From contig MCFG01000056.1 in assembly GCA_002104895.1 (NCBI GenBank), forward strand, positions 186,001 to 225,389: a stretch of 39,389 nt of DNA. The letters are read 5' to 3'. Source of the DNA: Anaeromyces robustus (lineage: Eukaryota). Below the pieces are notes generated by a model. It did no database searches. It was given only the letters and a program-made list of their open reading frames with translations, and was not told the DNA's origin. Position 1 is the stretch's first letter, and the number at the start of each line of letters is the position of its first letter. Position numbers and translations under genes: made by a program. Below, one piece after another: positions 1 to 39,389 of this stretch.

Positions 1-4898
<4,898 letters not shown>

Positions 4899-7800
4899 CT
4901 TTAAATTAAAAATTGTATTAAAATAAAAATAATGTATGAAGTTATATGATATTTGTAATCAAAATAAGTTTATATAATTATTATAAAATTTGTATTTTTC
5001 TTTTCTTCTTTTCTCTTTATTATTATATTATTATTGTTATTTGATATTTTGTTTGTTTTTAATTTAATAATTTATTAAATATTTAATAATTATTTCAAAT
5101 AATAATAATAAAGTATAATATGTAATTAATTATAATAAATTTAAATTTTGTAATTATTATTACTTTAAACATTTAGTATTAATTATATTATGTTATTTAA
5201 AATAATAATATACTTACTTTACATGTTATAAAATTTTTATACTTCAAAATATATTAAATATATATATATATGCTTATCTTCACTAGTTAAAAAATATTTA
5301 TTAAATTATTAAATAATGATATATTATGGAAAAAAAAAAAAAAGATTTAAAATTTAAATAAAGAATATATGATAATATGAAATAATATTATAAGATAATA
5401 TATTATATGGAATAAAGATATTTTTAAATTTTGAATTTAAATTATTAAATTTGTATTAGTTTTTTCCCGAATTTATGTTGATGTATAAATAAAATTTTAA
5501 AATATTTCTCTTTTCATGGTATTAAAAATAATTGAAATTGCAATTTTTAAATTATGATAATAGTGTAGTTATAAAAGTAGAATTTTTCAATATTAATCTT
5601 ATCAAAATTTTTGAATTATTATTATATTAATTTATTCATAAAACATTTCTTTGATTGTTATTAACAATTAATTATTTATGGATAATTGACAATTAATAAT
5701 TAATAATTAATAATTGGATTATTGGTATTTGGTATTATTATTTATAATAATAATTTTAATATAGAATCTTTTAAAATATATACAATCTTTAATAAATTAT
5801 AAATATAGAAAAAAAGAAAAATAAAAGTAAAAATTTTAAAATTTGAAAGTGAAAAAAAAAAAAAAAAAAAAAAAAGTAAAAATTATGATTATTATATATA
5901 AATTTAATTAATCATTATAAGGCATAAAAAAAAACTTTTTTAGTATAACCGTCAACTATAATTATTAATTTTATTATTTTTAAAAAAAAAAATAATTATT
6001 TTTTATTCATCAATATATATTATATATAGAGTAATATATTATTAAATATATTAAATAATATATATTTATAAATTTTTACTATTCTAATAATATTAAACAT
6101 AAAGAAATATAAAAAAAGTATTTGTTATTAATTATTAATATAAATTATTGATTATAATATATTTTCAATTATTTATACGATTTAGATTATCATATATTTT
6201 TTAATATTTTATAATATATTTGTATATATATCTATATTATTAATCAAATTAAATAATGGCGATTTTTTGTTATAATTATTATAATATATTTATACAATAT
6301 ATTTATAATATATTATATTCAATTAAAAAACACTGGTAAAAATTTTAAAAAAATTTTTTTTTATTTCTCTTTATTTATTACTTTGTACAATTATAAATTT
6401 ATCTAATGGGGTGAAAATATATTAAACGATATATTATACAATATATAGAATATACATAGAATATATATTATTAAATATATATGATATATTTAATCTGTAT
6501 TATTAAATTTAAAAAGTAAATAAAATAAAAAAAAAAAAACTCTATAAATTTTAATTAATAAAAAAGAAAAAACTAAGTATAAATTAATTAATATATGTTA
6601 GACATATATTAACAATTCATTAATTTTTTATTATCATTTTTTTAAAATGAAAAAAAAAATTGAAGATTTACAAAATCTTAATTAATAATTATTATAACTA
6701 AATAAATAAATAAATAAATAAATATAAATATTAATAAATATTAATAAATGTTAATAAATAATTAATAAATAATTAATAAATAATTAATAACTAATAAATA
6801 AAAATAAAAATAATAAATATAATAAATAATATTAATTAAAAAAAAAAAATATTAATTAATAATTATAATAACTAATAAAAAAATCTTTATAACAATGTTG
6901 ATATTTAATAATATTTATATATTAATTTAATTATAATAAACACAATTTAAACTTTTATAGTATTATAAAATTTAAAGAAAAAAATAAAATAAAAATTAAA
7001 AAAAAAAAAAAAACAATTTATAAAAGCTTTAATAATACCATATAAGAAAAGTATAAAATAAAATAATAACTTTTACAATAAAATGAAATTACTTAATATT
7101 ATTTTTCTATTAATTATTTTTTAATATATTTATGTTAAAATACTACATAAATTATTACTATAAAATTTTTGATTAAATTACTATGAAATAAACATAATTT
7201 TTTATATATAATTTAAATATTAAAAAACATTTCTTTTTCATAAATGGCATGAAAGGGAACAGAAATTGGTAGAAATTATAAATTCAAATTCATAAATTCC
7301 AGTTATTTATTATTAATACCTTAAATTAAAGTTAATATCAAATATATATTTTTTTTAAATATATATATTTAATATATTAAAAATGTAGTTTAATTCTTGA
7401 AATTATTAACAACTTGATTATCCATATTAAATATATTATCTTTATCGAAATTGAACAAAAAAATTTAATCAATATTAATAATTTTAAATATTAATATTTA
7501 TTCTTTTTTTAACTATAATAGCATTTTAAATAATAATTTTCTTTTCAATTATCGAATAAACATTATTATTTATTATTTATTATTATACATACTAATTATC
7601 AGTTATTTATCATTAATAATTATTTTATTATATACTATTTTCATCAATTATTTATTATGTTATTATTATATTAATTATATCATTATTTATTATTTAACAT
7701 AAAATATATTCATTATTACTCAATTACCATTATTATTCTTAATAAATTACCATAATTATTCATTATTAATAAATTAATCAATTACCATTATTTATTATTT

Positions 7801-22468: not shown

Positions 22469-25400
22469 CTAATTTTCAAAATGAGATTTCTCTGGATATA
22501 AATTATTCATAAATTCATATATATCATTATAATAATATTTTTCATCAACTTGAAGTTTAATTGAATAAAATAATACAGATGAATCTTCAATACTCTTTAA
22601 ATTATTAAGATTCTTTTTAGTTCCTTTATTTAATGATATAGATTTAATAGTATTACTACGAACACTTGGAGATACAATATCATAAGAATAAAAATCAATA
22701 GTACGATTAGTATTTAATTTAACATTATTATAATTCCAAGCTGTACCATCACCACTTAATATTTCTGGGAAGAATGGATTAGCAGCACCATAAATATTAA
22801 AGAACATTAAAGCATAATTTGGTATAATATCTAAAGCATTAATAAATTTATGTTTAATGGTTTCTTCAACATATTCTCTATAAATCATACGAGCAGGTTC
22901 AAATAAATCTCTATACCATGTTAATGGAGCTCTTTCAATATAACGAATTCCAACGGATTCACCAAATACTTCCTTTATAATACCATTAGTATAATAAAGT
23001 GAACTTTGGAATTTTTGATAATTCTTTAATTTTTTCTTTTCAGAAATACTTAATGCTTTATCTTTATCATGAGGAACTTTACGATTATTAACAAAATATT
23101 TTGGTCCAAAATCTTTACTAAAGAAGAAACGTGGATGAGTATATTCTTTAAAGTAATGATTATTATTAAAATAGACAAATCGTTCAGAAATTCCAGGTAT
23201 TTTATCTAAATACATTTCTAAAACAAATATATTAAAAGTAGGTACAGCTTCAGATGGAATTATATCTTTTTCATTAATAATTTTTATACGTTTATTAGAA
23301 GTATTTAACCAATTTGGTACTTGACCTGGTGTAACAATATAAATATTTCCTTGATGCCATGGAAGATATTTTTCTATAGAACGTAAAGAATATTGTAATT
23401 CATCATACTTTTTAATATTTTTATTTTTATTTAACTTTTCATCAATATAATCCTTTCTTAAATTAATATAATCTGGATCAGTATCATTAACCCAAATATA
23501 AACAAATGAAATATCTTTAGCCCATTGCCATTCTTTATCTAATTCTTCACCTTTATAATTTAAAAGGAAATCAATTTCTTCCTTTTCACGATCACTATAT
23601 TGATCAATTGATTTTAAATTTGAACCAGATTTAGAATCTGAAGAAGAAATAATCGTTGAATTTGAATTTAAATAATTTTCAATAATTTTAGAATTATCAT
23701 CATTGTTATCCTTAGTATCATTAGTATTATTATTATTATTATTATTATTAATATCATCATTATTATTATTATCATTTACAATTTCACCATTTTCATTTGT
23801 ATTTTGTAAAGCACTATCTCCAACAATTTTAGCATCAACATCAATATTTTGACTAGCTGCTAAAGCTTCTTCTTGTTCAAGATATTCCTTTTTTTCAAAA
23901 CTAGAAGGTTTTGGATATTGATTTTTCATAAAGTTTACAAGTTGATAAAGAGCTTCTTTCTTTTGATAATCATCATTTAAATTAAACATAATTATATCAG
24001 AATTTAAAATTCTGTCAAATAATTTTTGATTTCTTTCAATATTATTAAGAATAGATCCAAATTTAAGTACTTTACGACGAATTTCTTGTGGAACAATTTG
24101 ATAAGAATAATCAGTAATAGTACGATTACTATTAAGTTCTAAAGGTGCCATATTTTTAGCTTTACCTAAACCACCAACATTCTTTGGGAAATCTTTTGCT
24201 TCAGTAGCATATCGAATAAAAGCTTGTATAGCATAAGTTGGAATTAAATCTAATGGATGTCTAAATTTATGTAATAAAGTTTCTTGAACTTGTTTTTCAT
24301 ATACTTTACGAGCAGGTTCATATAAATCTCTATACCAACTATAAGGAGAATGATCTAACCAACTAATACTAGCTTTTCTACCAAAAGCTTGTTTTACAGC
24401 ATCATTTGTATTATAAACTGATCCACGGAATTTACGAATCATATGAGCTTTTTTCATTTTAGCAATGGCTTCAGCTGATTCACGAGTAGAACGTACTTTA
24501 TTATTAGATTGATAGAATCTTGGATAGAATGTTTTTGGAGTAAAGAAGAAAGAAGGATGTACATAATTATTAAAGAAATAATCATCATTTAAATGAACAA
24601 AACGTTCACTAAGACCTGGAATCTTATCTAAATAAAGTTCAATAACAAAAGAATTAAATGTTGGTGCTACATGTGGTGGTAAAAGATCATCTTGATTAAT
24701 AACTTTAATTCTTGGATTATTCGTATCAATAAAATCTGGAATTTGATTTGGAGATACAATAAAAATCATACCTCGATGCCATGGAAGATATTTTTCAAGA
24801 GAACGAAGTGAATAACGTAATTCACCTACTGAACGATCTCTATTATTAACTTTACGATTACCACCATTATATTTAGCTTTTAAATCTAAATGATTATAAT
24901 CAGATCCATTAATCCAAGTATAAACAAAAGACATATCTTTAGCCCATTCCCATTCTGGTTCTAATTCACCACCATTATAATTTAATAAAACATCTAAATC
25001 ATGATTTATTTCTGTATTTATTTTTGTATCTTTATTATTATTTTTATTATTATCTTGTTTATTGTCTTGTTTATTATCTTTATTCTTATTCTTATCCATA
25101 TCATTTTCCTTATTCTTATCCTTATCCATATTCTTATCCATACCCTTATCCATATCATTATCTTTATCTTTATCCTTTTGTTGTTCTTTACCATCTTTTT
25201 CATCATTTCCAATATCATTTAATTCAACAATATTTTCAACAATATTTTTATCTTGTTCTATTTCTCCATTAACAAGTCCATCTTGTTCTCCATTCATTAA
25301 ATTCATGGAATCAATAACATCCATAACATCATTTGCATTATCAAGTGTATCATCATCTACATTATTCTTTTTATTTTCAGCTTTTTGATTTTCCTCAAGT

Positions 25401-28400
25401 TCAATTTTTAATACTTCATCACCATCATCTATATTTTGTGGATTTTCGTCATTGTCATCATCATTATCCTTATCATTACCATTACCATTAGTATTAGTAT
25501 TAGCATTATTATCATCATTAGTTAAATTTTCATTTGTACTTCTTGTAATTTTCCCATTAAAACCATTACTTAATCGTTGTTTAATATCATCTTCAGAAGT
25601 TCAAAAGTACTTGGGAATGGATACATGAAAACCATAAAATTAACTAAATTTTGTCCTGCTTTTTTCAGATTTTAATCATCATTAAGATTATAAAAGAACT
25701 GTTGAATTACGAATATCATTATATAATTTTTCATTTCTTTCCAAATTTTCAAATACTGAACCAAATTTAATAGTTTTTTGAACGAACATTTGGTGATACA
25801 ATATAAGAAAAATAATTTTGAATGGTACGATCTTTATTTAATTGAACTGGTGCAAGTTCTCTACCAGTTACCATCACCACCAACAAATATTCTGGATAAT
25901 TTGGAACAGCAGCACCATACATGACATAAGCTTGGAAACCATAGGTTGGTATAAGATCTAAAGGATCTCTAAAACGATGTGTTAAACTATCTTTAATATA
26001 TTTACTGAAAAGTTGACGTGCAGGTTCAAAAAGATCACGATACCATGAATAAGGGGAATGATCTAACCAACGAAGATTAATTGAATTACCAAAAGCTTCT
26101 TTAATAATACCATTGGTATAAAATACAGCACTTTGGAATTTCTTAATCATAGAAAGTTGATCCTTAGTTTCATTCATTTCTAAAGCTTTTTTCATACTAA
26201 ATGGTACTTTTTTACCTAAATAAAATTTTGGAGCAAATGTCTTATCCGCAAAGAAGAAACGTGGGTGAGTATAAGTTCTAAAGAAAATAAATCATCATTT
26301 AAATAAACAAATCGTTCCGTAAATACCAGGTATTTTATCTAAATACATTTCATTAAAAAATGAATTAAAAGTAGGAAGAGCTTCTTTGGGAATAATATCA
26401 TCTTGATCAATAACTTTAATTCTTGGATTATCTGTATCTAACCATAAAGGAACTTGATTTGGAGTAACAATATAAATAGTTCCTTTATGCCATGGAAGAT
26501 AATTTTCAAATGAACGAAGAGAATAACGTAATTCATCCATAGAACGATCTCTATTATCTGCCTTCTTTTGACCACCATTATATTTAGATTTTAAGTCTAA
26601 ATGATAAGGATCAGAACCATTAACCCATGAATAAACAAAAGACATTTCTTCTGCCCATTTCCATTCTGGTTCTAAAGGTTCACCTTTATAACTTAATAAA
26701 AAGTCAATTTCAGCTTGTTCTCTTGGACTTGTATCATCTGGTTCATCCTTTTTATCCTCTTTTTTACCATCTTTTTTACCATCCTTTTTATCCTCTTTTA
26801 TCCTCCTTTTTTGGTGGTTTTACATCAATAACAGCATCTGAAATTTCAAAAAGATGATACTTCTGGATATTGTTTTCTCATGAAATTTAAAAGTTGACGA
26901 CCAGCTTCTTTCAGATCTATAATCATCATTTTAAATTATACATTAAAATTTTTGGAATTGTAATTTCATTGAAAAACTTTTCATTTCTAGTAATATTATT
27001 AATATACTGATCCAAAACGAATAACTTCTTTACGCACTTCTTGTGGTACAATTTCACAAGAAAAATCGGTAATAGTACTATTTTGGAAAGTTTAATAGGA
27101 GCAGTAAAACGAGCTAAACCATTACCACCAACTTCTTTTGGATATTTAACATCTTTTGTTGCATAATAAGTATAAAAATTCAAGAGCATATGAGGTACTA
27201 AATCTAAAGGATGTCTAAACTTATGAGAAATGGTATCTTGAACTTGAGTTTTAAAAAGTTGACGAGCTGGTTCGAAAAGATCACGATAACCAATATAGGG
27301 TGAATGATCTAACCATTTTAATTTATTTTTATCACCAAAACCATCACGAATAGCTTGATTTGTACTAAAAACAGCACCTTGGAACTTTTTAATCATACCA
27401 GCATTATCCATTTTTAGAAATTTCAATAGCACGATTACGACCTCCACAATACTTTTATTAGTTTGATAAAAATTTTGGATAAAATGTTTTTGAAGTAAAA
27501 AAGAAAGATGGGTGAGTATAAGATTTAAAGAAATAATCATCATTTAATTGAATAAAACGTTCAGTAAGACCAGGAATTTTATCTAAAAAAAGTTCAATAG
27601 TAAAAGTATTAAATGTTGGTGCAACATTTGGTGGTAAAAGATCATCTTGATTAATAATCTTTACTCTTGTATTTGGTTTTAACCATGATGGTACTTGATT
27701 TGGACTAACAATAAAAATATTACCTTTATGCCATGGTAAATATTTTTCTAATGAACGAAGTGAATAACGTAATTCATCCACTGAACGGTCTCTATTATCA
27801 ATATTTCTATTACCACCATTATATTTTGATTTAAGATCTAAATGATTCAAATCTGAACCATTAACCCAAGTATATACAATAGAAATATCTTCAATCCATT
27901 TCCATTCTGGTTCTAATGGACCACCACGATATTTTTTCATTTCTCTAATTTCTTTTACAAATTTTTCATCTAATTTCTTTCCATCTTGAATAATTTCTAA
28001 ATATTCATCTTCATCTTCAATCTTTGGTTCCGGCTCTTTTGCTTTCATTATTGGTATTTCCTTAAATTCATTTTCATCTTTTACATTATTTTCATCTTTT
28101 ACATCATTTTCATTATTTTCATTATTTTCATTATTATTATCATTTTCATTTTCAACTAAATTTTCATTATTATCGTCATTTTTCTTTGCATCATCAACTA
28201 TGATTGGTGCTTCTTTTTCTTCATCATTTTTATTTTCAATAAAATCAAGATTATTTTCATTATTGTTCAAATTGGAATCTTCAATATTCTTTTCTTTTGT
28301 CGAATCAGAGAAATTATGTTCTTTTTCCAATTCCATTTGTTTTACACCACGCCTTAGATCATACATAAGGAATATGAAAAACGATATTCCTACAAATAAA

Positions 28401-28426
28401 AATATAAGTCTAACCTTAAATCTCAT
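22469..28426 (-). CDS. Four-module Stealth-family (CpsY/GNPTAB/Xpt1-like) hexose-1-phosphate transferase, type II membrane protein, about 1,985 aa; frameshifted as assembled between ~25590 and ~27480
   Basis: N-terminal anchor MRFKVRLIFLFVGISFFIFLM. Four copies of CR1 (VYTWVNGSD), CR2 (ELRYSLRS..KYLPW...PTFN...IPGLSERF..LNDDYFF), CR3 (WLDHSPY...HKFRHP) and CR4 (NLNDD). ORF-track pieces 27458-28426, 26926-27543, 26295-26645, 25767-26195 and 22469-25324 join through 1-nt shifts with coding-like linkers (EDKKDGKKDG..., SEDDIKQRLSNG...DNANDV-MDVID). No intergenic DNA or intron is visible between pieces. Confidence 0.85.
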
Positions 28427-28923
28427 TTTGTAAATAACATATAAAACAAAAAAGATTTATTGAATTATTGAATTATTTTTTATTTAAATTATATATTTGA
28501 TTGATAAGTATAAATAATAAATTATTATGTTTTTATTAATATAATAATTGATTTTATTATTATTATTATTATTATTTATATTCCCTTTCTTATAAAAGTA
28601 TTAATAATATTATAATAAAAATTTATTAAATGTTATTATTAATTTTAATACTGATAATATAATCCAAACAATAAATCTAAACCCCAAACAGCATTTAATT
28701 CTTATTTCTTAGTTTCTAAAATTTATTATCATCAAAAGAAAAGAAAAAAAAAGAAAGAAAGCAAAAATCTTTAAAACATAAATATTTGCTTTTTATTTTT
28801 TCCTTTTTTTTACTTATTTACTTATTTAAATATTATTATTGATTATTCTAAAATATAAAAATTTAAAAAAATAAAATAAAATTAGTTTAATATTTGTACA
28901 TTTTTTTATATTTATTTTAAAAC

Positions 28924-32355: not shown

Positions 32356-32569
32356 TTAAATTTTTATGATTTAAATAAATTATTCTTTAATAATCAATAA
32401 TCTTTTTTTTTTTAAATTTTAAATGATTTTATCAATAATAAAATATTTAATTTTAATTTGAAATTCACTAATATTCCTAATAATATTCTTTATTATTCTT
32501 AATATTTGCCAAAAAAAAAAACAGGCAATATAATTAAAAATAATTTAAAATTTTCATTTCCTCATTTCA

Positions 32570-33090
32570 TGATACAAGATAAACTTATATCTAATTATTT
32601 TATTTAAAGACAAGACAGCAGGGAAATATTAACAAAACAATATATTCTAATATAACACAATTTATAATAATTATTTCATGTTTAATATAATAGTTTATTT
32701 ATTTATTATTATTTATTATTACATTTTATTATAATTATAATTGAATTTATCTAACTAATATTAATATCTAAACTAAACTTTATTATATAAACACTATTCC
32801 TTATTAATCTATATATTAACCTAGGAAATTCTCAAATAAAATATTAGATTATTAAACTAAATATTAATTAAACCATTATAAAAATCTCTAAACTATATTA
32901 TAAAAACTCACTTGGGATTAACTTTCTCTCCATAGAAAGATCAAATATTAAAAATATAATAATAATAATTTCTTTTATATGTATTATTTAGTTATTTAGC
33001 CAATCAGAATTATTTATTTTTTCTTCTTAATACATGTTCAATCACCTGGTAGTAATAATATAAATCTCTATTTATATTGAGTCTGTATCA
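32570..33090 (-). repeat. LTR A (521 bp, TGATACA...TGTATCA), 3' LTR of copy 1
   Basis: Direct repeat of 34698-35218 and 35689-36209. I see two substitutions relative to those copies (atatatt/atgtatt; attagatt/attaaatt). Confidence 0.92.
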
Positions 33091-33410
33091 AGATGCCGCC
33101 GCTTAAGATATGACTTCGTCCCTTGAAGTCATCAATAAAAGTAGAAGTTTTTATTCCATAATAATTATTTATTATAATTATTTTGTATATATTTTTATAA
33201 TAATTATTTTCAATAGATATTATTATTAGATTAATATATATATATATATATATTTTTATTTCTTCATCTTTTGTTCTTTTTGTAGCATCATCCAGTCTCT
33301 TGATTTTTATTCCTTTTTCTTATTTATAAATCTTCAGCACCTCCGGGATCTTATTTCTTCTTTTATACGTTATAATTCTGATTATTATTATAATTTATTA
33401 TTATTATTAT

Positions 33411-34011
33411 TGTAATGATAGAGTGAAGTTTATTAGCAATAGGCCCGCAAGCTTGAGTAACTCGAAATAATGGACAACACGAGGGATCTAAGAAAGATAA
33501 AAGACACAGTTAATTAAAAATATGTTTTATAATAAAATGTTTTATTAATTTTTATTAAATTTAAAATATAATAATTTATTAATTAGTTAGTGTAATATTT
33601 CGAATTACTTATTTAACTAGTTAATAAAAACGCGAAGAAAAAATATTTCTTTTGTCGAAATTTTACACGTATTTATACTTTTTACGGAAAAATAGTTTTC
33701 GTTTGTAAAAAGTATTAAAAGTTCTAGAAACTTAGATTTTTTGATTTAAAATGAATCTCGGATAAATAAAATTTAAAATAAAAAGAAAAACTAGAATCTT
33801 TTAGAATTTAATCGATAAGATTTTATCGATTAAATTCGAGTAATTTCTACAACAAGGAAAAGTGTAGAAAATTTTGATAATAAATTTTTAAAATAAAATT
33901 TTTCCAAAATTGGAAAGAGTGAGAGTCGAACCCGAGAGGTTCGGCCTGATGGCTCTAGTGTCTGACCACTAGACCATGATTACTATTTTACTAATTCTGA
34001 GTTTCGTTACA
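33411..34011. mobile_element. Solo LTR X (601 bp) nested in copy 1
   Basis: TGTAATGA...TCGTTACA termini. ATTAT on both sides (inside an ATT tract, so a weak TSD). Absent from the same position in copy 2. Confidence 0.8.
33911..33983 (-). promoter_or_regulatory. tRNA-derived type-2 Pol III promoter (A box and B box) inside LTR X
   Basis: A box TGGTCTAGTGG (33976-33966) with intact D-stem GTCT/AGAC. B box GGTTCGACTC starts at 33932, 44 nt later, which is tRNA spacing. TTTT follows at 33909-33906. Confidence 0.7.
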
Positions 34012-34049
34012 ATTATTATTATTATTATTATTATTATTATAAATATATA

Positions 34050-34642
34050 TGTAATGATATGGATCCATTATGGCTACTAATTAGGCTCAGTTCTACCTGC
34101 TTCTATTATTATGTTGGTTGTCTCTGGTTCGAACCTTACTCTTTACCTTTCGGAATAATATTATTTATTTAATTAATAATAAATATATTCACTCAATTAT
34201 TAGATAATAATTTACTTAAATTAATAATATGTATTCATTGAAATAAATTTATTTAAATATTAATTTATTATTCACTTAATTAATATAATAATTTATCTAG
34301 TTCTTAATATTATATTTATTTAATTAAAATAATAATTAAATAATTATATAATTCTTATTTTAAATAATTTGCCCAATCATGTAATAATTTAGAATAGATT
34401 TTTGAATATATAAATTCATGTATTTTATTTTATTTGACTCTTTGAGTCGATATTAACAATCAATTAATAATAAATAAAATATAAATATCAACCATAAATA
34501 AATGAACAAATATATATTATATAAATGAATCTACTAATTAATTAAGTGAATAATCAATAGTGTTATAAATAATTTAATATATTATATTATTATTTATTAT
34601 TAATTTCCTACAATAACCTAGTGGTCACTCCAAATCTTTACA
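34050..34642. mobile_element. Solo LTR Y (593 bp) nested in copy 1, at a deletion junction
   Basis: TGTAATGA...TCTTTACA termini. Left flank is copy-1 internal sequence, right flank is the LTR tail, and there is no matching TSD. Confidence 0.75.
34083..34145 (+). promoter_or_regulatory. Pol III B box with partial A box inside LTR Y
   Basis: GGTTCGAACC at 34126-34135. A-box-like AGGCTCAGTT starts 43 nt upstream but lacks the GG. Confidence 0.55.
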
Positions 34643-35218
34643 AATCACCTGGTAGTAATAATATAAATCTCTATTTATATTGAGTCTGTATCATTCATGA
34701 TACAAGATAAACTTATATCTAATTATTTTATTTAAAGACAAGACAGCAGGGAAATATTAACAAAACAATATATTCTAATATAACACAATTTATAATAATT
34801 ATTTCATGTTTAATATAATAGTTTATTTATTTATTATTATTTATTATTACATTTTATTATAATTATAATTGAATTTATCTAACTAATATTAATATCTAAA
34901 CTAAACTTTATTATATAAACACTATTCCTTATTAATCTATGTATTAACCTAGGAAATTCTCAAATAAAATATTAAATTATTAAACTAAATATTAATTAAA
35001 CCATTATAAAAATCTCTAAACTATATTATAAAAACTCACTTGGGATTAACTTTCTCTCCATAGAAAGATCAAATATTAAAAATATAATAATAATAATTTC
35101 TTTTATATGTATTATTTAGTTATTTAGCCAATCAGAATTATTTATTTTTTCTTCTTAATACATGTTCAATCACCTGGTAGTAATAATATAAATCTCTATT
35201 TATATTGAGTCTGTATCA

Positions 35219-35250
35219 AGATGCCGCCGCTTAAGATATGACTTCGTCCC
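35219..35250 (-). other. Atypical polypurine-tract region
   Basis: Minus strand GGGACGAAGTCATATCTTAAGCGGCGGCATCT directly precedes the 3' LTR. Identical in copy 1 (33091-33122). Confidence 0.5.
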
Positions 35251-35520
35251 TTGAAGTCATCAATAAAAGTAGAAGTTTTTATTCCATAATAATTATTTAT
35301 TATAATTATTTTGTATATATTTTTATAATAATTATTTTCAATAGATATTATTATTAGATTAATATATATATATATATATATTTTTATTTCTTCATCTTTT
35401 GTTCTTTTTGTAGCATCATCCAGTCTCTTGATTTTTATTCCTTTTTCTTATTTATAAATCTTCAGCACCTCCGGGATCTTATTTCTTCTTTTATACGTTA
35501 TAATTCTGATTATTATTATA

Positions 35521-35563
<43 letters not shown>

Positions 35564-35667
35564 AATATATATATATTTTCTTTTATGTATATATATGTAT
35601 ATTTTTTTATATATATAATTATTATTATTGTTGTTTTATTATTTTCATATTGTTTTGTCGCTGTCTC

Positions 35668-35684
35668 GCCCGGATTCTCCACCA
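35668..35684 (-). other. Primer-binding site complementary to a tRNA-Ala 3' end
   Basis: Minus strand TGGTGGAGAATCCGGGC, 4 nt from the LTR. Its complement GCCCGGATTCTCCA-CCA fits a GGGGAAT/ATTCTCC acceptor stem with the G3:U70 Ala determinant. Confidence 0.8.
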
Positions 35685-36225
35685 AATTTGATACAAGATA
35701 AACTTATATCTAATTATTTTATTTAAAGACAAGACAGCAGGGAAATATTAACAAAACAATATATTCTAATATAACACAATTTATAATAATTATTTCATGT
35801 TTAATATAATAGTTTATTTATTTATTATTATTTATTATTACATTTTATTATAATTATAATTGAATTTATCTAACTAATATTAATATCTAAACTAAACTTT
35901 ATTATATAAACACTATTCCTTATTAATCTATGTATTAACCTAGGAAATTCTCAAATAAAATATTAAATTATTAAACTAAATATTAATTAAACCATTATAA
36001 AAATCTCTAAACTATATTATAAAAACTCACTTGGGATTAACTTTCTCTCCATAGAAAGATCAAATATTAAAAATATAATAATAATAATTTCTTTTATATG
36101 TATTATTTAGTTATTTAGCCAATCAGAATTATTTATTTTTTCTTCTTAATACATGTTCAATCACCTGGTAGTAATAATATAAATCTCTATTTATATTGAG
36201 TCTGTATCATTCAAAGGAACAAGAA

Positions 36226-36307
36226 GCCGGGATGGCCGAGCGGTCTAAGGCGGCGCACTCAAGATGCGTTTTCGTAAGAAGCGCGAGTTCGAATCTCGCT
36301 TCCGGCA
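36226..36307 (+). tRNA. trnL-CAA: tRNA-Leu(CAA), intronless
   Basis: Acceptor GCCGGGA/TTCCGGC-A; D arm GCC..GGC; anticodon arm GCGCA-CTCAAGA-TGCGT; long variable arm TTTC-GTAA-GAAG; T arm GCGAG-TTCGAAT-CTCGC; no encoded CCA. Confidence 0.97.
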
Positions 36308-36312
36308 TTGTC

Positions 36313-36323
36313 TTTTTTGTTTT
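36313..36323 (+). terminator. Pol III oligo(T) terminator of tRNA-Leu
   Basis: TTTTTTGTTTT 5 nt after the discriminator base. Confidence 0.8.
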
Positions 36324-36658: not shown

Positions 36659-36722
<64 letters not shown>

Positions 36723-36888
36723 CTTTTAATCTCTTTCTTCCTATTTAATGAACAAAATTATTCTATCCTTCGAATCCGAATCAGAATAAATTCCATGTTT
36801 TTATCTTCTCGACATCGACACCTTTGAAGCCGCCCGGAATGTTCTTATTGTTATTATATAGTTGTTATTATACTAATTGAAGAAAATC

Positions 36889-37021
36889 CTAAAGGATAAA
36901 ATCTTTTATAATTGACATAATAACAATAAAAAAAAAAATACTATAGAATAATAATAGTCGGAATAGGAAACTCTAATAAACTTTTTTATTATGTTAATTA
37001 TATAAAGATTTTATCCTTTAG
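36889..37021. repeat. Inverted repeat, ~35-bp arms, 62-nt spacer
   Basis: CTAAAGGATAAAATCTTTTATAATTGACATAATAA versus reverse complement of 36986-37021 CTAAAGGATAAAATCTTTATATAATTAACATAATAA. Confidence 0.8.
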
Positions 37022-37320
37022 TTAGAATAAAGATCCTATATATCTTTGGATAGTCCATAATTTATATTCAATGTATATGTATATAGTAGGAACCAATATT
37101 TCAAAAAATTATTTCATATAGAAATCTCATACTTTCTTTAAATGGATGATTTTTTCGTTAGTATATCTTTCATTATATATATTATATATATAAATACTTG
37201 CCTTTAATTTCCTTTTTTTTTTTTCTTTTGAAAGACCTTTTTAATACCTTTTTAATTTCTTTTTTAAGGTACAATATTTTTTAGTCCATAAATAATAATA
37301 AGGCATGTAATAAGAATAAT

Positions 37321-37323
<3 letters not shown>

Positions 37324-37363
<40 letters not shown>

Positions 37364-39389
37364 GCAATAAAATAATGAAAATTTTATTTAAATTTAATTT
37401 AAAAAGTACATGTTATAAAGTAATTGTACATATTAAAACTTAATCTAATAAAGAATAATAATTTATTATTTAATAGATAGTAATAATTAATAATTACTTC
37501 ATATGGTATAGTGTATATTATTAAATTAAATCAAGTTGGAAAGTTATTATCATTATTAGATGCGTGTGACCTACTGTCTTGTCCTACTGAATTGTCAGCT
37601 TCGACGCTCTTGGTTAGATTGTTGGGATACCTATTGAATAATGACCAGATCTGGCCACTAACAGTAGGCATAATTCTAAGTAAAAGTGCGGATGTACGTA
37701 CCAAAAGTGGAACATCCGAAAAGGTGCTAGGTTTAAGTTGCGCCTTACAAAGACTGTTCCACTCCTCTTTCCCCAAGTTATAATGATTAACTCTTCCACC
37801 AAGAAGGAAATAATATACCCTACTCCATTCCAACGAGTTGGAATGAAAATTTACCCCACTTGAAGCATTACTAACTAAATTATTATAATTAATACTATTA
37901 TTTAAACTATTATTATTGTTGTTGATACTATAACTGAAAGTATTATTTAAGTTGTAAGTTAAACTAACATAATGAATAAAACTATTAGAAACTAAGAAAG
38001 TATTATTTCGTGAAGAATTCTCCAAGGAGGAGAAATTGTTGAAGTAATTAAAACCAAAAAAAATGTTGTTGATAGTTAAATTATTAATGAATTGAGAGTA
38101 GTTGTATAGAAAATATGTAGATAAGCTAGTACTATTACTATTACTAACATTATTAATATTACTATTATCATTGCTATTACCATTATTATTACTATTAATA
38201 TTAATATTACTATTACTACTGCTATTATTATTATAGATATTATCATAAATATTATTATTGTAGTTATTATTAAAATTATTAGAAAAGTTGATATTATCAG
38301 AACTAACTAAAGGTTTTCGATTAACATACAAATAAATGGTTTCAAGATTGCCAAATAACTTAGAACGCCAATGATCGAATGTTGGGCATTCTAGAATCCA
38401 ATGTTCGAAGGTTTGACTACCGCCTTTACAACAAGGACAGTAATCAGGGCAAGAGTCAGATACAAGTTTAGCGGCTTTAGCAATTTCACTATTGAATTTA
38501 TAACCACTACGTATTTTGAGGAGCCAATTAAAGCCATAAGCCAAGTTAGGGTATTCAAGTTCAAGATGTAAATAATCACGAGATAATTCAAGGTGATTAT
38601 CACAATAGGTAACAGCTTTAACGGAGTCTTTTTTGACATCTCTATTCCAATAAAAAGTCAAGATATCTTCTCTAGAGCCAATTTTAGAAAGTTTCTTTGA
38701 TAAAGTTCTGCTTTCTTTAGCCCATGTGTATTTTCTCATCTTCGGAATAATAGTAACTAACTTGGAAATAATACAATTAGAGTCTGCCCATCTCTTAAAA
38801 CATTTATCTTGAGCAATGGCACATTTGGCAGAAAGAGGAGGAATATTAAGATCTTTAGATACATTATATAAAGATATGAAGGAAGAGCGCTTCCTAAGAC
38901 CTGCAATCCAAGAGAGTCCTTTATTAATTAGCCTTTGAGCACCGTTTGTTCTAGTTTTATTAGATCCAAGTAAAGGTGCAACGTATGATACTTGACTGAC
39001 AACAACCGAATTAAAAACTGATTTCTTGAAGGATATAGGCATATAAGGATTAATTAAAAATCCTCTAACAGAAAAAAGCGCTTTCCTAACTTTATTATTC
39101 GTCGATTTAATTATCGGTTTAAGAGATAAATCACTATCAAAAGGAATTCCCAAATACGTATAACAATTAGTTTTTGGAATAATTTGACCAGCAAGGTAAA
39201 AGGTAGGGTCACCTTTAACTTTAGAATTTTCTGCTTTTACAACCGTAGTTCCACATTTACCAATTCCGAATTCCATAAGGTTAAATTTAGCCCAATCATT
39301 AACTTTTTTCAAAAGCTTATTTAGTTTACTTCTAGTAGGTGCACAAAGGACAATATCATCGGCAAAGAGGCCCCCACAACAGTTTTTTA
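37324..39389 (-). mobile_element. Non-LTR retrotransposon (LINE), 3' portion with 3' UTR and poly(A)39
   Basis: RT ORF, ~170-bp AT-rich 3' UTR, pure T39 at 37324-37362, and higher GC than the host DNA. Confidence 0.92.
37531..39387 (-). CDS. LINE ORF2 C-terminal part: RT active site/thumb plus CCHC zinc finger (5'-partial)
   Basis: The frame is open to the window edge: KNCCGGLFADDIVLCAP (FADD at 39366-39355), FGIGKCG, YTYLGIPFD, and CPCC..SQTFEHWILECP. Confidence 0.93.
   Translation of the reverse strand, partial: KNCCGGLFADDIVLCAPTRSKLNKLLKKVNDWAKFNLMEFGIGKCGTTVVKAENSKVKGDPTFYLAGQIIPKTNCYTYLGIPFDSDLSLKPIIKSTNNKVRKALFSVRGFLINPYMPISFKKSVFNSVVVSQVSYVAPLLGSNKTRTNGAQRLINKGLSWIAGLRKRSSFISLYNVSKDLNIPPLSAKCAIAQDKCFKRWADSNCIISKLVTIIPKMRKYTWAKESRTLSKKLSKIGSREDILTFYWNRDVKKDSVKAVTYCDNHLELSRDYLHLELEYPNLAYGFNWLLKIRSGYKFNSEIAKAAKLVSDSCPDYCPCCKGGSQTFEHWILECPTFDHWRSKLFGNLETIYLYVNRKPLVSSDNINFSNNFNNNYNNNIYDNIYNNNSSSNSNININSNNNGNSNDNSNINNVSNSNSTSLSTYFLYNYSQFINNLTINNIFFGFNYFNNFSSLENSSRNNTFLVSNSFIHYVSLTYNLNNTFSYSINNNNNSLNNSINYNNLVSNASSGVNFHSNSLEWSRVYYFLLGGRVNHYNLGKEEWNSLCKAQLKPSTFSDVPLLVRTSALLLRIMPTVSGQIWSLFNRYPNNLTKSVEADNSVGQDSRSHASNNDNNFPT

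Follow-up and report, generated by a model that had tools for sequence, protein, structure and literature searches.

Integration of LTR elements beside tRNA genes

The closest described comparators for the locus reported here are Ty3/sigma of Saccharomyces cerevisiae, a Ty3/gypsy element of the Metaviridae, and DGLT-A of Dictyostelium, which is likewise Ty3/gypsy. The locus itself is a pair of long terminal repeat (LTR) elements directly upstream of a tRNA-Leu(CAA) gene in a 39,389-nt stretch of the genome of the probable gut fungus Anaeromyces robustus (contig MCFG01000056.1, positions 186,001 to 225,389 of the forward strand), which is called the window below and in which coordinates are counted from its first letter. 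Ty3 inserts 1 to 4 bp upstream of the RNA polymerase III (Pol III) start, about 15 bp before the mature tRNA, and DGLT-A inserts 13 to 33 bp upstream of tRNA genes, with a mean of 15 bp (PMC5006619, PMC5911963). At Ty3 targets strand transfer takes place at -6 and -2 from the start, giving a 5-bp duplication, and TFIIIB is bound at -15 to -32 (bioRxiv 10.1101/2021.07.27.453949). The two elements differ in the factor used, since Ty3 acts via TFIIIB whereas DGLT-A binds Tfc4, a subunit of TFIIIC (PMC6101501).

Other LTR elements listed at Pol III sites, together with Ty3, are Ty3p, Tj1, Tca8, Tyl3, Ylt1, and Tyl6, all from Ascomycota, while Skipper-2 accompanies DGLT-A in Dictyostelium (PMC5911963). 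In Table 1 of the same source, Tj1 of Schizosaccharomyces japonicus, Tca8/beta of Candida albicans, and Tyl3/Ylt1/Tyl6 of Yarrowia, which are fungal Ty3/gypsy elements, are found upstream of tRNA genes, 1 to 30 bp from the start site or the coding region (PMC5911963). In two of these papers, tRNA-adjacent LTR integration is documented only in ascomycete yeasts and dictyostelid amoebae (PMC5006619, PMC5911963). Non-autonomous LTR elements are a further point of reference, in that they are moved by the proteins of a partner (PMC10886601). The author of an earlier note on this DNA knew of no description of such targeting in Neocallimastigomycota, and a full-text literature search, with most subscription journals outside it, likewise found none in anaerobic gut fungi or other early-diverging fungi. 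The locus behaves like Ty3 or DGLT-A, and it is probably a further case of that type.

Two copies in one 4-bp target upstream of tRNA-Leu(CAA)

The window contains three complete 521-nt LTRs, each of the form TGATACA...TGTATCA, at 32570-33090, 34698-35218, and 35689-36209. The first of these belongs to a disrupted copy (copy 1), whose other, tRNA-side (5') LTR survives as a 51-nt stub at 34643-34693 (minus strand) that is identical to the LTR end at 51 of 51 positions; the second and third enclose a 470-nt internal region and with it make up copy 2 (34698-36209, 1512 nt). Directly outside each complete LTR edge stands TTCA, at 32566-32569 (the outer target-site duplication of copy 1), at 34694-34697 (common to both, as the inner duplication of copy 1 and the outer duplication of copy 2), and at 36210-36213 (the inner duplication of copy 2). 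After the last LTR end at 36209 there are 16 nt before the tRNA gene, made up of TTCA and a 12-nt spacer (AAGGAACAAGAA, 36214-36225, plus strand) that, to judge from Ty3 geometry, probably contains the Pol III start site, so that the target duplication occupies -16 to -13 relative to the 5' end of the mature tRNA. The tRNA-Leu(CAA) gene (36226-36307, plus strand) is called both by ARAGORN and by Rfam (56.7 bits) and is followed by a run of six T, a T6 terminator, at 36313-36318; neither program reports any other tRNA or Rfam match in the window. The arrangement of TTCA, copy 1, TTCA, copy 2, TTCA, intervening sequence, and tRNA, and the distance of 16 bp, are thus as the earlier note had read them.

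The duplication is 4 bp long, which also agrees with that note: TTCA flanks both sides of each copy, and a 5-bp duplication does not agree with the next bases outward, which differ (T versus A on the left, T versus A on the right). TTCA occurs 270 times in the window (0.0069 per position), and the chance of two further occurrences exactly at the element edges is about 5e-5. The two LTRs of copy 2 are identical (0 of 521 positions differ), and the complete LTR of copy 1 differs from both at two positions, 244 and 278. The stretches 32566-33419 and 34694-35547 are 99.4% identical over 854 nt. The window covers a single locus for this LTR family, and within these 39 kb every LTR copy of the family lies directly upstream of tRNA-Leu(CAA); both of the two insertions are thus at a fixed short distance upstream of a tRNA, and both are at one site.

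One integration or two

These features very probably record two separate integrations at one site, with copy 1 clearly the older. Three TTCA motifs, with a complete LTR edge on each side of the middle one, fit two integrations better than a tandem made by recombination, as the earlier note had argued. Its further suggestion that the newer copy pushed the older one away is in keeping with the lack of any difference between the LTRs of copy 2, set against the two differences, the insertions, and the deletion in copy 1; the later insertions, of repeats that we call Y and X, are found in copy 1 only. Public sequencing data bear on the LTR differences. Four public runs, including RNA-seq (two runs) and a DNA run, X2, were matched against 33420-35688. 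At LTR position 244 the sole DNA contig from X2 has the copy 1 base and at position 278 the copy 2 base, so there is one private change per copy, in a comparison that has few variants to count and in which rare variants are lost from the contigs. The change private to copy 2 is present in both of its LTRs, which is what reverse transcription of one template yields.

The TTCA-E-TTCA-E-TTCA layout (E, element) would also result if one integration had been followed by tandem duplication of the element plus TTCA, with the 4-bp duplications as the sites of unequal exchange or replication slippage, and the copies do share the same orientation and the 99.4% identity over 854 nt that such a duplication would leave. 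We nevertheless regard this history as quite improbable: the base at position 244 in the copy 2 LTRs is absent from copy 1 and from the commonest X2 form, so that a duplication would need a back-change in copy 1, the two copies are unequally decayed (no LTR difference in copy 2; two differences, two insertions, and a deletion in copy 1, on small counts), and four bases of homology are very little for an exchange of this kind.

The junction between the copies, 34643-34698, is spanned by none of the reads or contigs listed, which counts against two integrations, since the tandem is therefore known from the assembly alone, and LTRs are a classic cause of misjoins. The joining of elements from different loci by the assembler is all the same very improbable, because a misjoin driven by the repeat would fall inside the LTR, whereas the sequence here passes from LTR end through TTCA to LTR start, outside the shared sequence; TTCA also stands at both outer edges, and the differences between the copies show that a single locus was not entered twice in the assembly.

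Finally, the middle junction might be thought to be that of a two-LTR circle, with dimeric complementary DNA (cDNA) integrated once. Ty3 carries two extra terminal bases, and a spacer of 4 nt between LTR ends is what 2 + 2 unprocessed terminal bases would leave. The circle predicts AA + CT from the neighbours on the primer-binding side and on the polypurine side, respectively, whereas the spacer reads TGAA on the element strand and equals both outer duplications, and this origin, which we find scarcely credible, was rejected. Two separate integrations into the same four bases remain the reading that we carry forward.

Structure of the element

In the case of copy 2, the direct LTRs with TG..CA ends and short inverted termini, the target duplication, and a TGG primer-binding site are all features of an LTR retrotransposon. 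The sense of the element is the minus strand, because a relative from a metagenome contig, L012 (described below), shows the same order of LTR, primer-binding site, gag, 3' junction, and LTR. On this strand the primer-binding site, TGGTGGAGAATCCGGG (35669-35684), lies 4 nt (AATT) past the tRNA-side LTR and is of the standard type that matches a tRNA 3' end; it would fit a primer tRNA with U70 and A73, such as tRNA-Ala. At the other end of the internal region, the 3' junction on the polypurine tract (PPT) side (35219-35259, minus strand) reads TGACTTCAAGGGACGAAGTCA...GGCATCT, with the LTR directly after, and is 85% identical to L012 positions 1868-1913 over 47 nt (E 2.7e-9). The LTR at 35689-36209 is therefore the 5' LTR of copy 2 and abuts the tRNA upstream region, the identical LTR at 34698-35218 is its 3' LTR, and the complete LTR of copy 1 (32570-33090, minus strand) is likewise a 3' LTR, so that both copies are directed away from the tRNA gene. 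A plus-strand reading was considered and rejected: TGG is absent past the left LTR, and pyrimidines predominate just ahead of the right one.

The internal region of copy 2 (35219-35688, minus strand) has no credible open reading frame, containing only low-complexity open frames of at most 83 codons, and neither copy in the window contains gag. In copy 1 the 3', PPT-side part of the internal region is retained at 33091-33410 (minus strand) and matches 35219-35538 of copy 2. Rfam shows no sequence like a small RNA in the LTR. The window copies encode nothing and are therefore non-autonomous. The tRNA-proximal copy had been described in the earlier note as intact, with identical LTRs; the identity of its LTRs holds in full (0/521), while the element itself is non-coding and depends on others for its movement.

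Elements of similar organization are the miniature terminal-repeat retrotransposons (TRIMs) and other non-autonomous LTR elements, such as Helenus and Cassandra, in which only a primer-binding site and a PPT-side junction lie between the LTRs. LTRs of 521 nt look large for a TRIM, and the present case is also unlike a TRIM in that the family has relatives carrying gag only, although the element itself, at 1512 nt, is non-coding. The LTR family is multi-copy. Word depth in run X2 is 2585-2801 for the LTR contigs and 542 for the contig that holds the LTR-to-internal junction, which, as a rough depth ratio, shows that this internal region follows about one-fifth of the LTR ends.

A relative with a Ty3-type gag

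Metagenome contigs from the Joint Genome Institute (JGI) and other sources were scanned for the pattern of LTR end plus primer-binding site, and 35 loci were recovered. Judged by composition and context, L012 (1990 nt, 25% GC) is the only relative among them and the closest found. It starts with the terminal 286 nt of an LTR whose end reads CGTATCA, followed by AAAT and the same primer-binding site extended by CGAG, continues with an open frame of 480 codons that encodes, from its first ATG, a gag of 473 amino acids with a CX2CX4HX4C knuckle, and closes after the 3' junction with TGATAC, the start of the next LTR. Its LTR portion aligns with the window LTR with a score of 95, compared with a mean of 40 and a maximum of 74 for dinucleotide shuffles (z 8.6). 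The 22-nt LTR end alone gave no match (0) in the metagenome contigs.

A search of 1.84 billion representative proteins with this gag found 78 relatives (representative clusters, P0020-P0097) at E <= 0.001, each of at most 520 amino acids or, if longer, matching solely in the zinc knuckle or over a short segment, and all from N-rich, AT-rich sources. No gag relative was found in viral contigs or in prokaryote genome contigs; the primer-binding-site pattern has one match in the viral contigs. A profile of 33 of the relatives matches Ty3 Gag (PDB 6r22) with an E value of 5.3e-7, and among the same 33 Pfam assigns Ty3_capsid in 3 and zf-CCHC in 15. The structure of gag residues 1-180 could be modelled with confidence, and the top Foldseek matches of the model are the dArc1, PNMA2, and Ty3 capsids, at weak E values of 0.04-0.3. 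The gag of L012 is of the Ty3 type. In two members, L012 and one further relative, the gag frame runs into the 3' LTR junction and stops there. The comparison shows that some members of the family have gag only, and that the copies in the window are derivatives that lack it.

About six of the 35 loci belong to other organisms and resemble LTR elements, but have an unrelated gag (tblastn E > 0.7), and the remaining loci are GC-rich chance matches. Loci L007, L009, L011, L022, L025, and L028, on metagenome contigs of 35-47% GC, have LTR-like ends and the same 16-nt primer-binding site; the same site stands beside unrelated gag, so that distant LTR elements seem to share one primer tRNA. No tRNA was found in the six LTR-like loci scanned, in L012, or in L005, L010, and L014, and in L015 a tRNA-Val lies about 900 bases from the match.

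Position of the insertions and proposed Pol III targeting

The position of the target duplication, -16 to -13, falls within the windows given for Ty3 and DGLT-A in the papers cited above, as the earlier note had anticipated in naming these two systems. Indeed, if Ty3 geometry is applied to this locus, the start site would be at 36215, leaving an 11-nt leader, which is ordinary. On this comparison we lean toward the view that the family targets Pol III genes. In the explanation that we prefer, one staggered 4-bp cut (TTCA), situated 13-16 bp upstream of where mature tRNA-Leu(CAA) begins, received non-autonomous LTR elements on two separate occasions. Copy 1 came first and was displaced by copy 2, and it later gained two repeats and one deletion, the latter taking most of its tRNA-side LTR and its primer-binding site. 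Under the mechanism that we favor, with some reserve, the integrase of a putative autonomous partner of Ty3/gypsy type would be tethered to the Pol III initiation complex, with strand transfer just upstream of the transcription start. The position would be set from inside the tRNA gene, and a first insertion would therefore leave the site usable; reuse of the same four bases would be expected because the position is measured from factors on the internal promoter of the tRNA. The last 40 nt of the LTR contain TATA-like runs, suggesting the possibility that they could serve TFIIIB after the first insertion.

It is instead conceivable, and in our view unlikely, that there is no Pol III targeting, that the first copy arrived by chance near a tRNA in a gene-poor, AT-rich transposon dump, and that the second was drawn to the LTR edge of the first or to a longer motif containing TTCA. 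The stretch from 28.5 to 39.4 kb does hold several other repeats, including Y, X, and a non-LTR retrotransposon (long interspersed nuclear element, LINE), and a single locus was seen. Against a chance landing, the first insertion lies exactly in the interval published for Ty3 and DGLT-A. A preference for TTCA anywhere, which the earlier note had raised as an alternative, fails as well: with 270 TTCA sites in the window, the motif alone cannot explain the reuse of one of them. To our knowledge, LTR integrases have not been described as favoring the outer edge of an LTR already in place.

Several further considerations weigh against Pol III targeting by a Ty3-like lineage. A single locus is seen, with the flank of no other genomic copy; the window was chosen from many, and the position of the first insertion may be a lucky coincidence; and the duplication is 4 bp, compared with 5 bp in Ty3 (bioRxiv 10.1101/2021.07.27.453949). 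L012 ends within its LTRs, so it has no flanks and is silent on targets, and the tract before the 3' LTR (AAGCGGCGGCATCT) is only moderately purine-rich. A pol, an integrase, or an autonomous partner was found neither in the window, nor in L012, nor in the gag-relative search, and there is no gag-pol fusion among the 78 gag relatives, so that these offer no route to the integrase of a partner.

With targeting of Pol III genes kept as the favored reading, the likeness to Ty3 lies in a set distance from the tRNA gene, about 15 bp ahead of the mature tRNA and just upstream of the Pol III start, in the tRNA gene being left intact, in the TG..CA ends of the LTRs, and in the match between the gag profile of the L012 relatives and Ty3 Gag. 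The differences from Ty3 are the length of the duplication, the 521-nt LTRs, and the primer-binding site; in addition, the window copies are without gag or pol, and the host is a very AT-rich fungus and not a budding yeast. DGLT-A is similar in that its host genome is AT-rich and its insertions lie upstream of tRNA genes, with many copies present as solo LTRs or defective elements, but it comes from Amoebozoa, has one open frame for gag-pol, and has a different primer-binding site 2 bp after the LTR. Tj1, Tca8/beta, and Tyl3/Ylt1/Tyl6 resemble the present element in their published insertion sites and differ from it in that all are autonomous and belong to Ascomycota.

Disruption of copy 1 by repeats Y and X

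The 1.2 kb at 33411-34642 in copy 1 is foreign to the element and without counterpart in copy 2, and it is made up of two other multi-copy repeats, Y and X. The earlier note had described the distal copy as slightly different and disrupted, and both points are borne out, with two LTR differences, two inserted repeats, and one deletion. The history of the copy thus comprises two insertions and a deletion that removed LTR bases 1-470 (in plus coordinates) and the side carrying the primer-binding site. Word depth of DNA run X2 is 3806-6288 for Y and X (single contigs), compared with 2585-2801 for the LTR; for the Y contigs it is 3806-4654. In all four runs depth is zero at 35548-35688, which is uninformative.

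Repeat Y (601 nt, 33411-34011) lies in an (ATT)n tract of the element, runs TGTAATG...CGTTACA, and has ATTAT on both flanks. At 33911-33998 (minus strand) it includes a tRNA-like stretch that is degenerate, which has A-box-like and B-box-like motifs on that strand and which ARAGORN calls only at the 75% threshold (-ps75), and a 550-nt RNA contig maps to Y at 33441-33990. Y could be a short interspersed nuclear element (SINE), or else a TRIM with a head of Pol III type may have left it as a solo LTR. Between the two repeats, 34012-34039 (minus strand) appears to be a remnant of the internal region of copy 1, (ATT)n followed by ATAAATATATA; the match is weak, being that of 34012-34053 to 35534-35575 at 97.6% over 42 nt of low-complexity sequence, and it runs into the start of X.

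Repeat X (34040-34642, plus strand, cut at 34642) opens with the same ten bases as Y, TGTAATGATA, and has near its start, within 34062-34147, a motif like a tRNA T-arm, GGTTCGAACC. The tRNA-like stretches of Y and X are not accepted as tRNAs by ARAGORN defaults or by Rfam, and X has no Rfam match. X matches a very abundant RNA: in two raw RNA-seq runs depth reaches about 1000-1400 over 34028-34179 and 34484-34635, with about 130-310 between 34179 and 34484, and 1210 and 1508 reads diverge from the window at 34643, where the LTR stub starts. A 1233-nt RNA contig is identical to the window over 34056-34643 (0 differences), and the abundant form of X has a 20-nt inverted repeat around 34444-34643. 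The possibility that X is a diverged LTR of the same family was tried and set aside, as the local score of 85, against a maximum of 72 for mononucleotide shuffles, is unconvincing.

Other features of the window

The GC content of the window is 9-13% in intergenic bins and 20-28% in coding bins, and the encoded proteins are rich in N runs. Public runs that contain 67-76% of the words sampled from the region carry the label 'fungus metagenome' or that of a coded organism, and an anaerobic gut fungus is a plausible host. Downstream of the tRNA gene, the interval 36690-37320 has on the plus strand a long run of A with its end at 36722; the next 600 nt or so, between the tRNA gene and the LINE, are less AT-rich. 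The LINE (37324-39389, minus strand) is cut by the window end and retains a 618-codon frame with the end of the reverse transcriptase domain; its full-length relatives have 1240-1518 amino acids with an endonuclease (PF03372) and a reverse transcriptase. Its poly(A), seen as poly-T on the plus strand at about 37324-37363, faces the tRNA gene from about 1 kb downstream of it. At 22469-28456, on the minus strand, there is a tandem cluster of frames with Stealth domains (CR1, CR2, and CR3), with at least four repeats of the domain set, and for the part of it that was searched the nearest protein clusters are mostly bacterial. Finally, a 1652-codon frame at 3-4958 on the minus strand, dominated by runs of N, Q, and QN, continues off the window edge.

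Implications for the family and its host

A broader and tentative reading, to which we give somewhat less than even weight, is that an early-diverging, extremely AT-rich fungus may have its own Ty3/gypsy-type lineage that has gained Ty3-like integration at Pol III start sites, whether by independent origin or as an ancient fungal trait. This lineage would make a 4-bp and not a 5-bp cut, most of its copies would be gag-only parasites or parasites without an open frame, and its target would be reusable, so that elements could stack at one nucleotide. Integration beside tRNA genes is the textbook case of a transposon picking a safe site. If the reading is true, a case in another fungal phylum would add data on how often this solution evolves, and the different cut spacing (4 bp) would provide a second natural system for comparing how integration complexes are positioned. 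It would also aid the annotation of repeats that flank tRNA genes in poorly annotated genomes.

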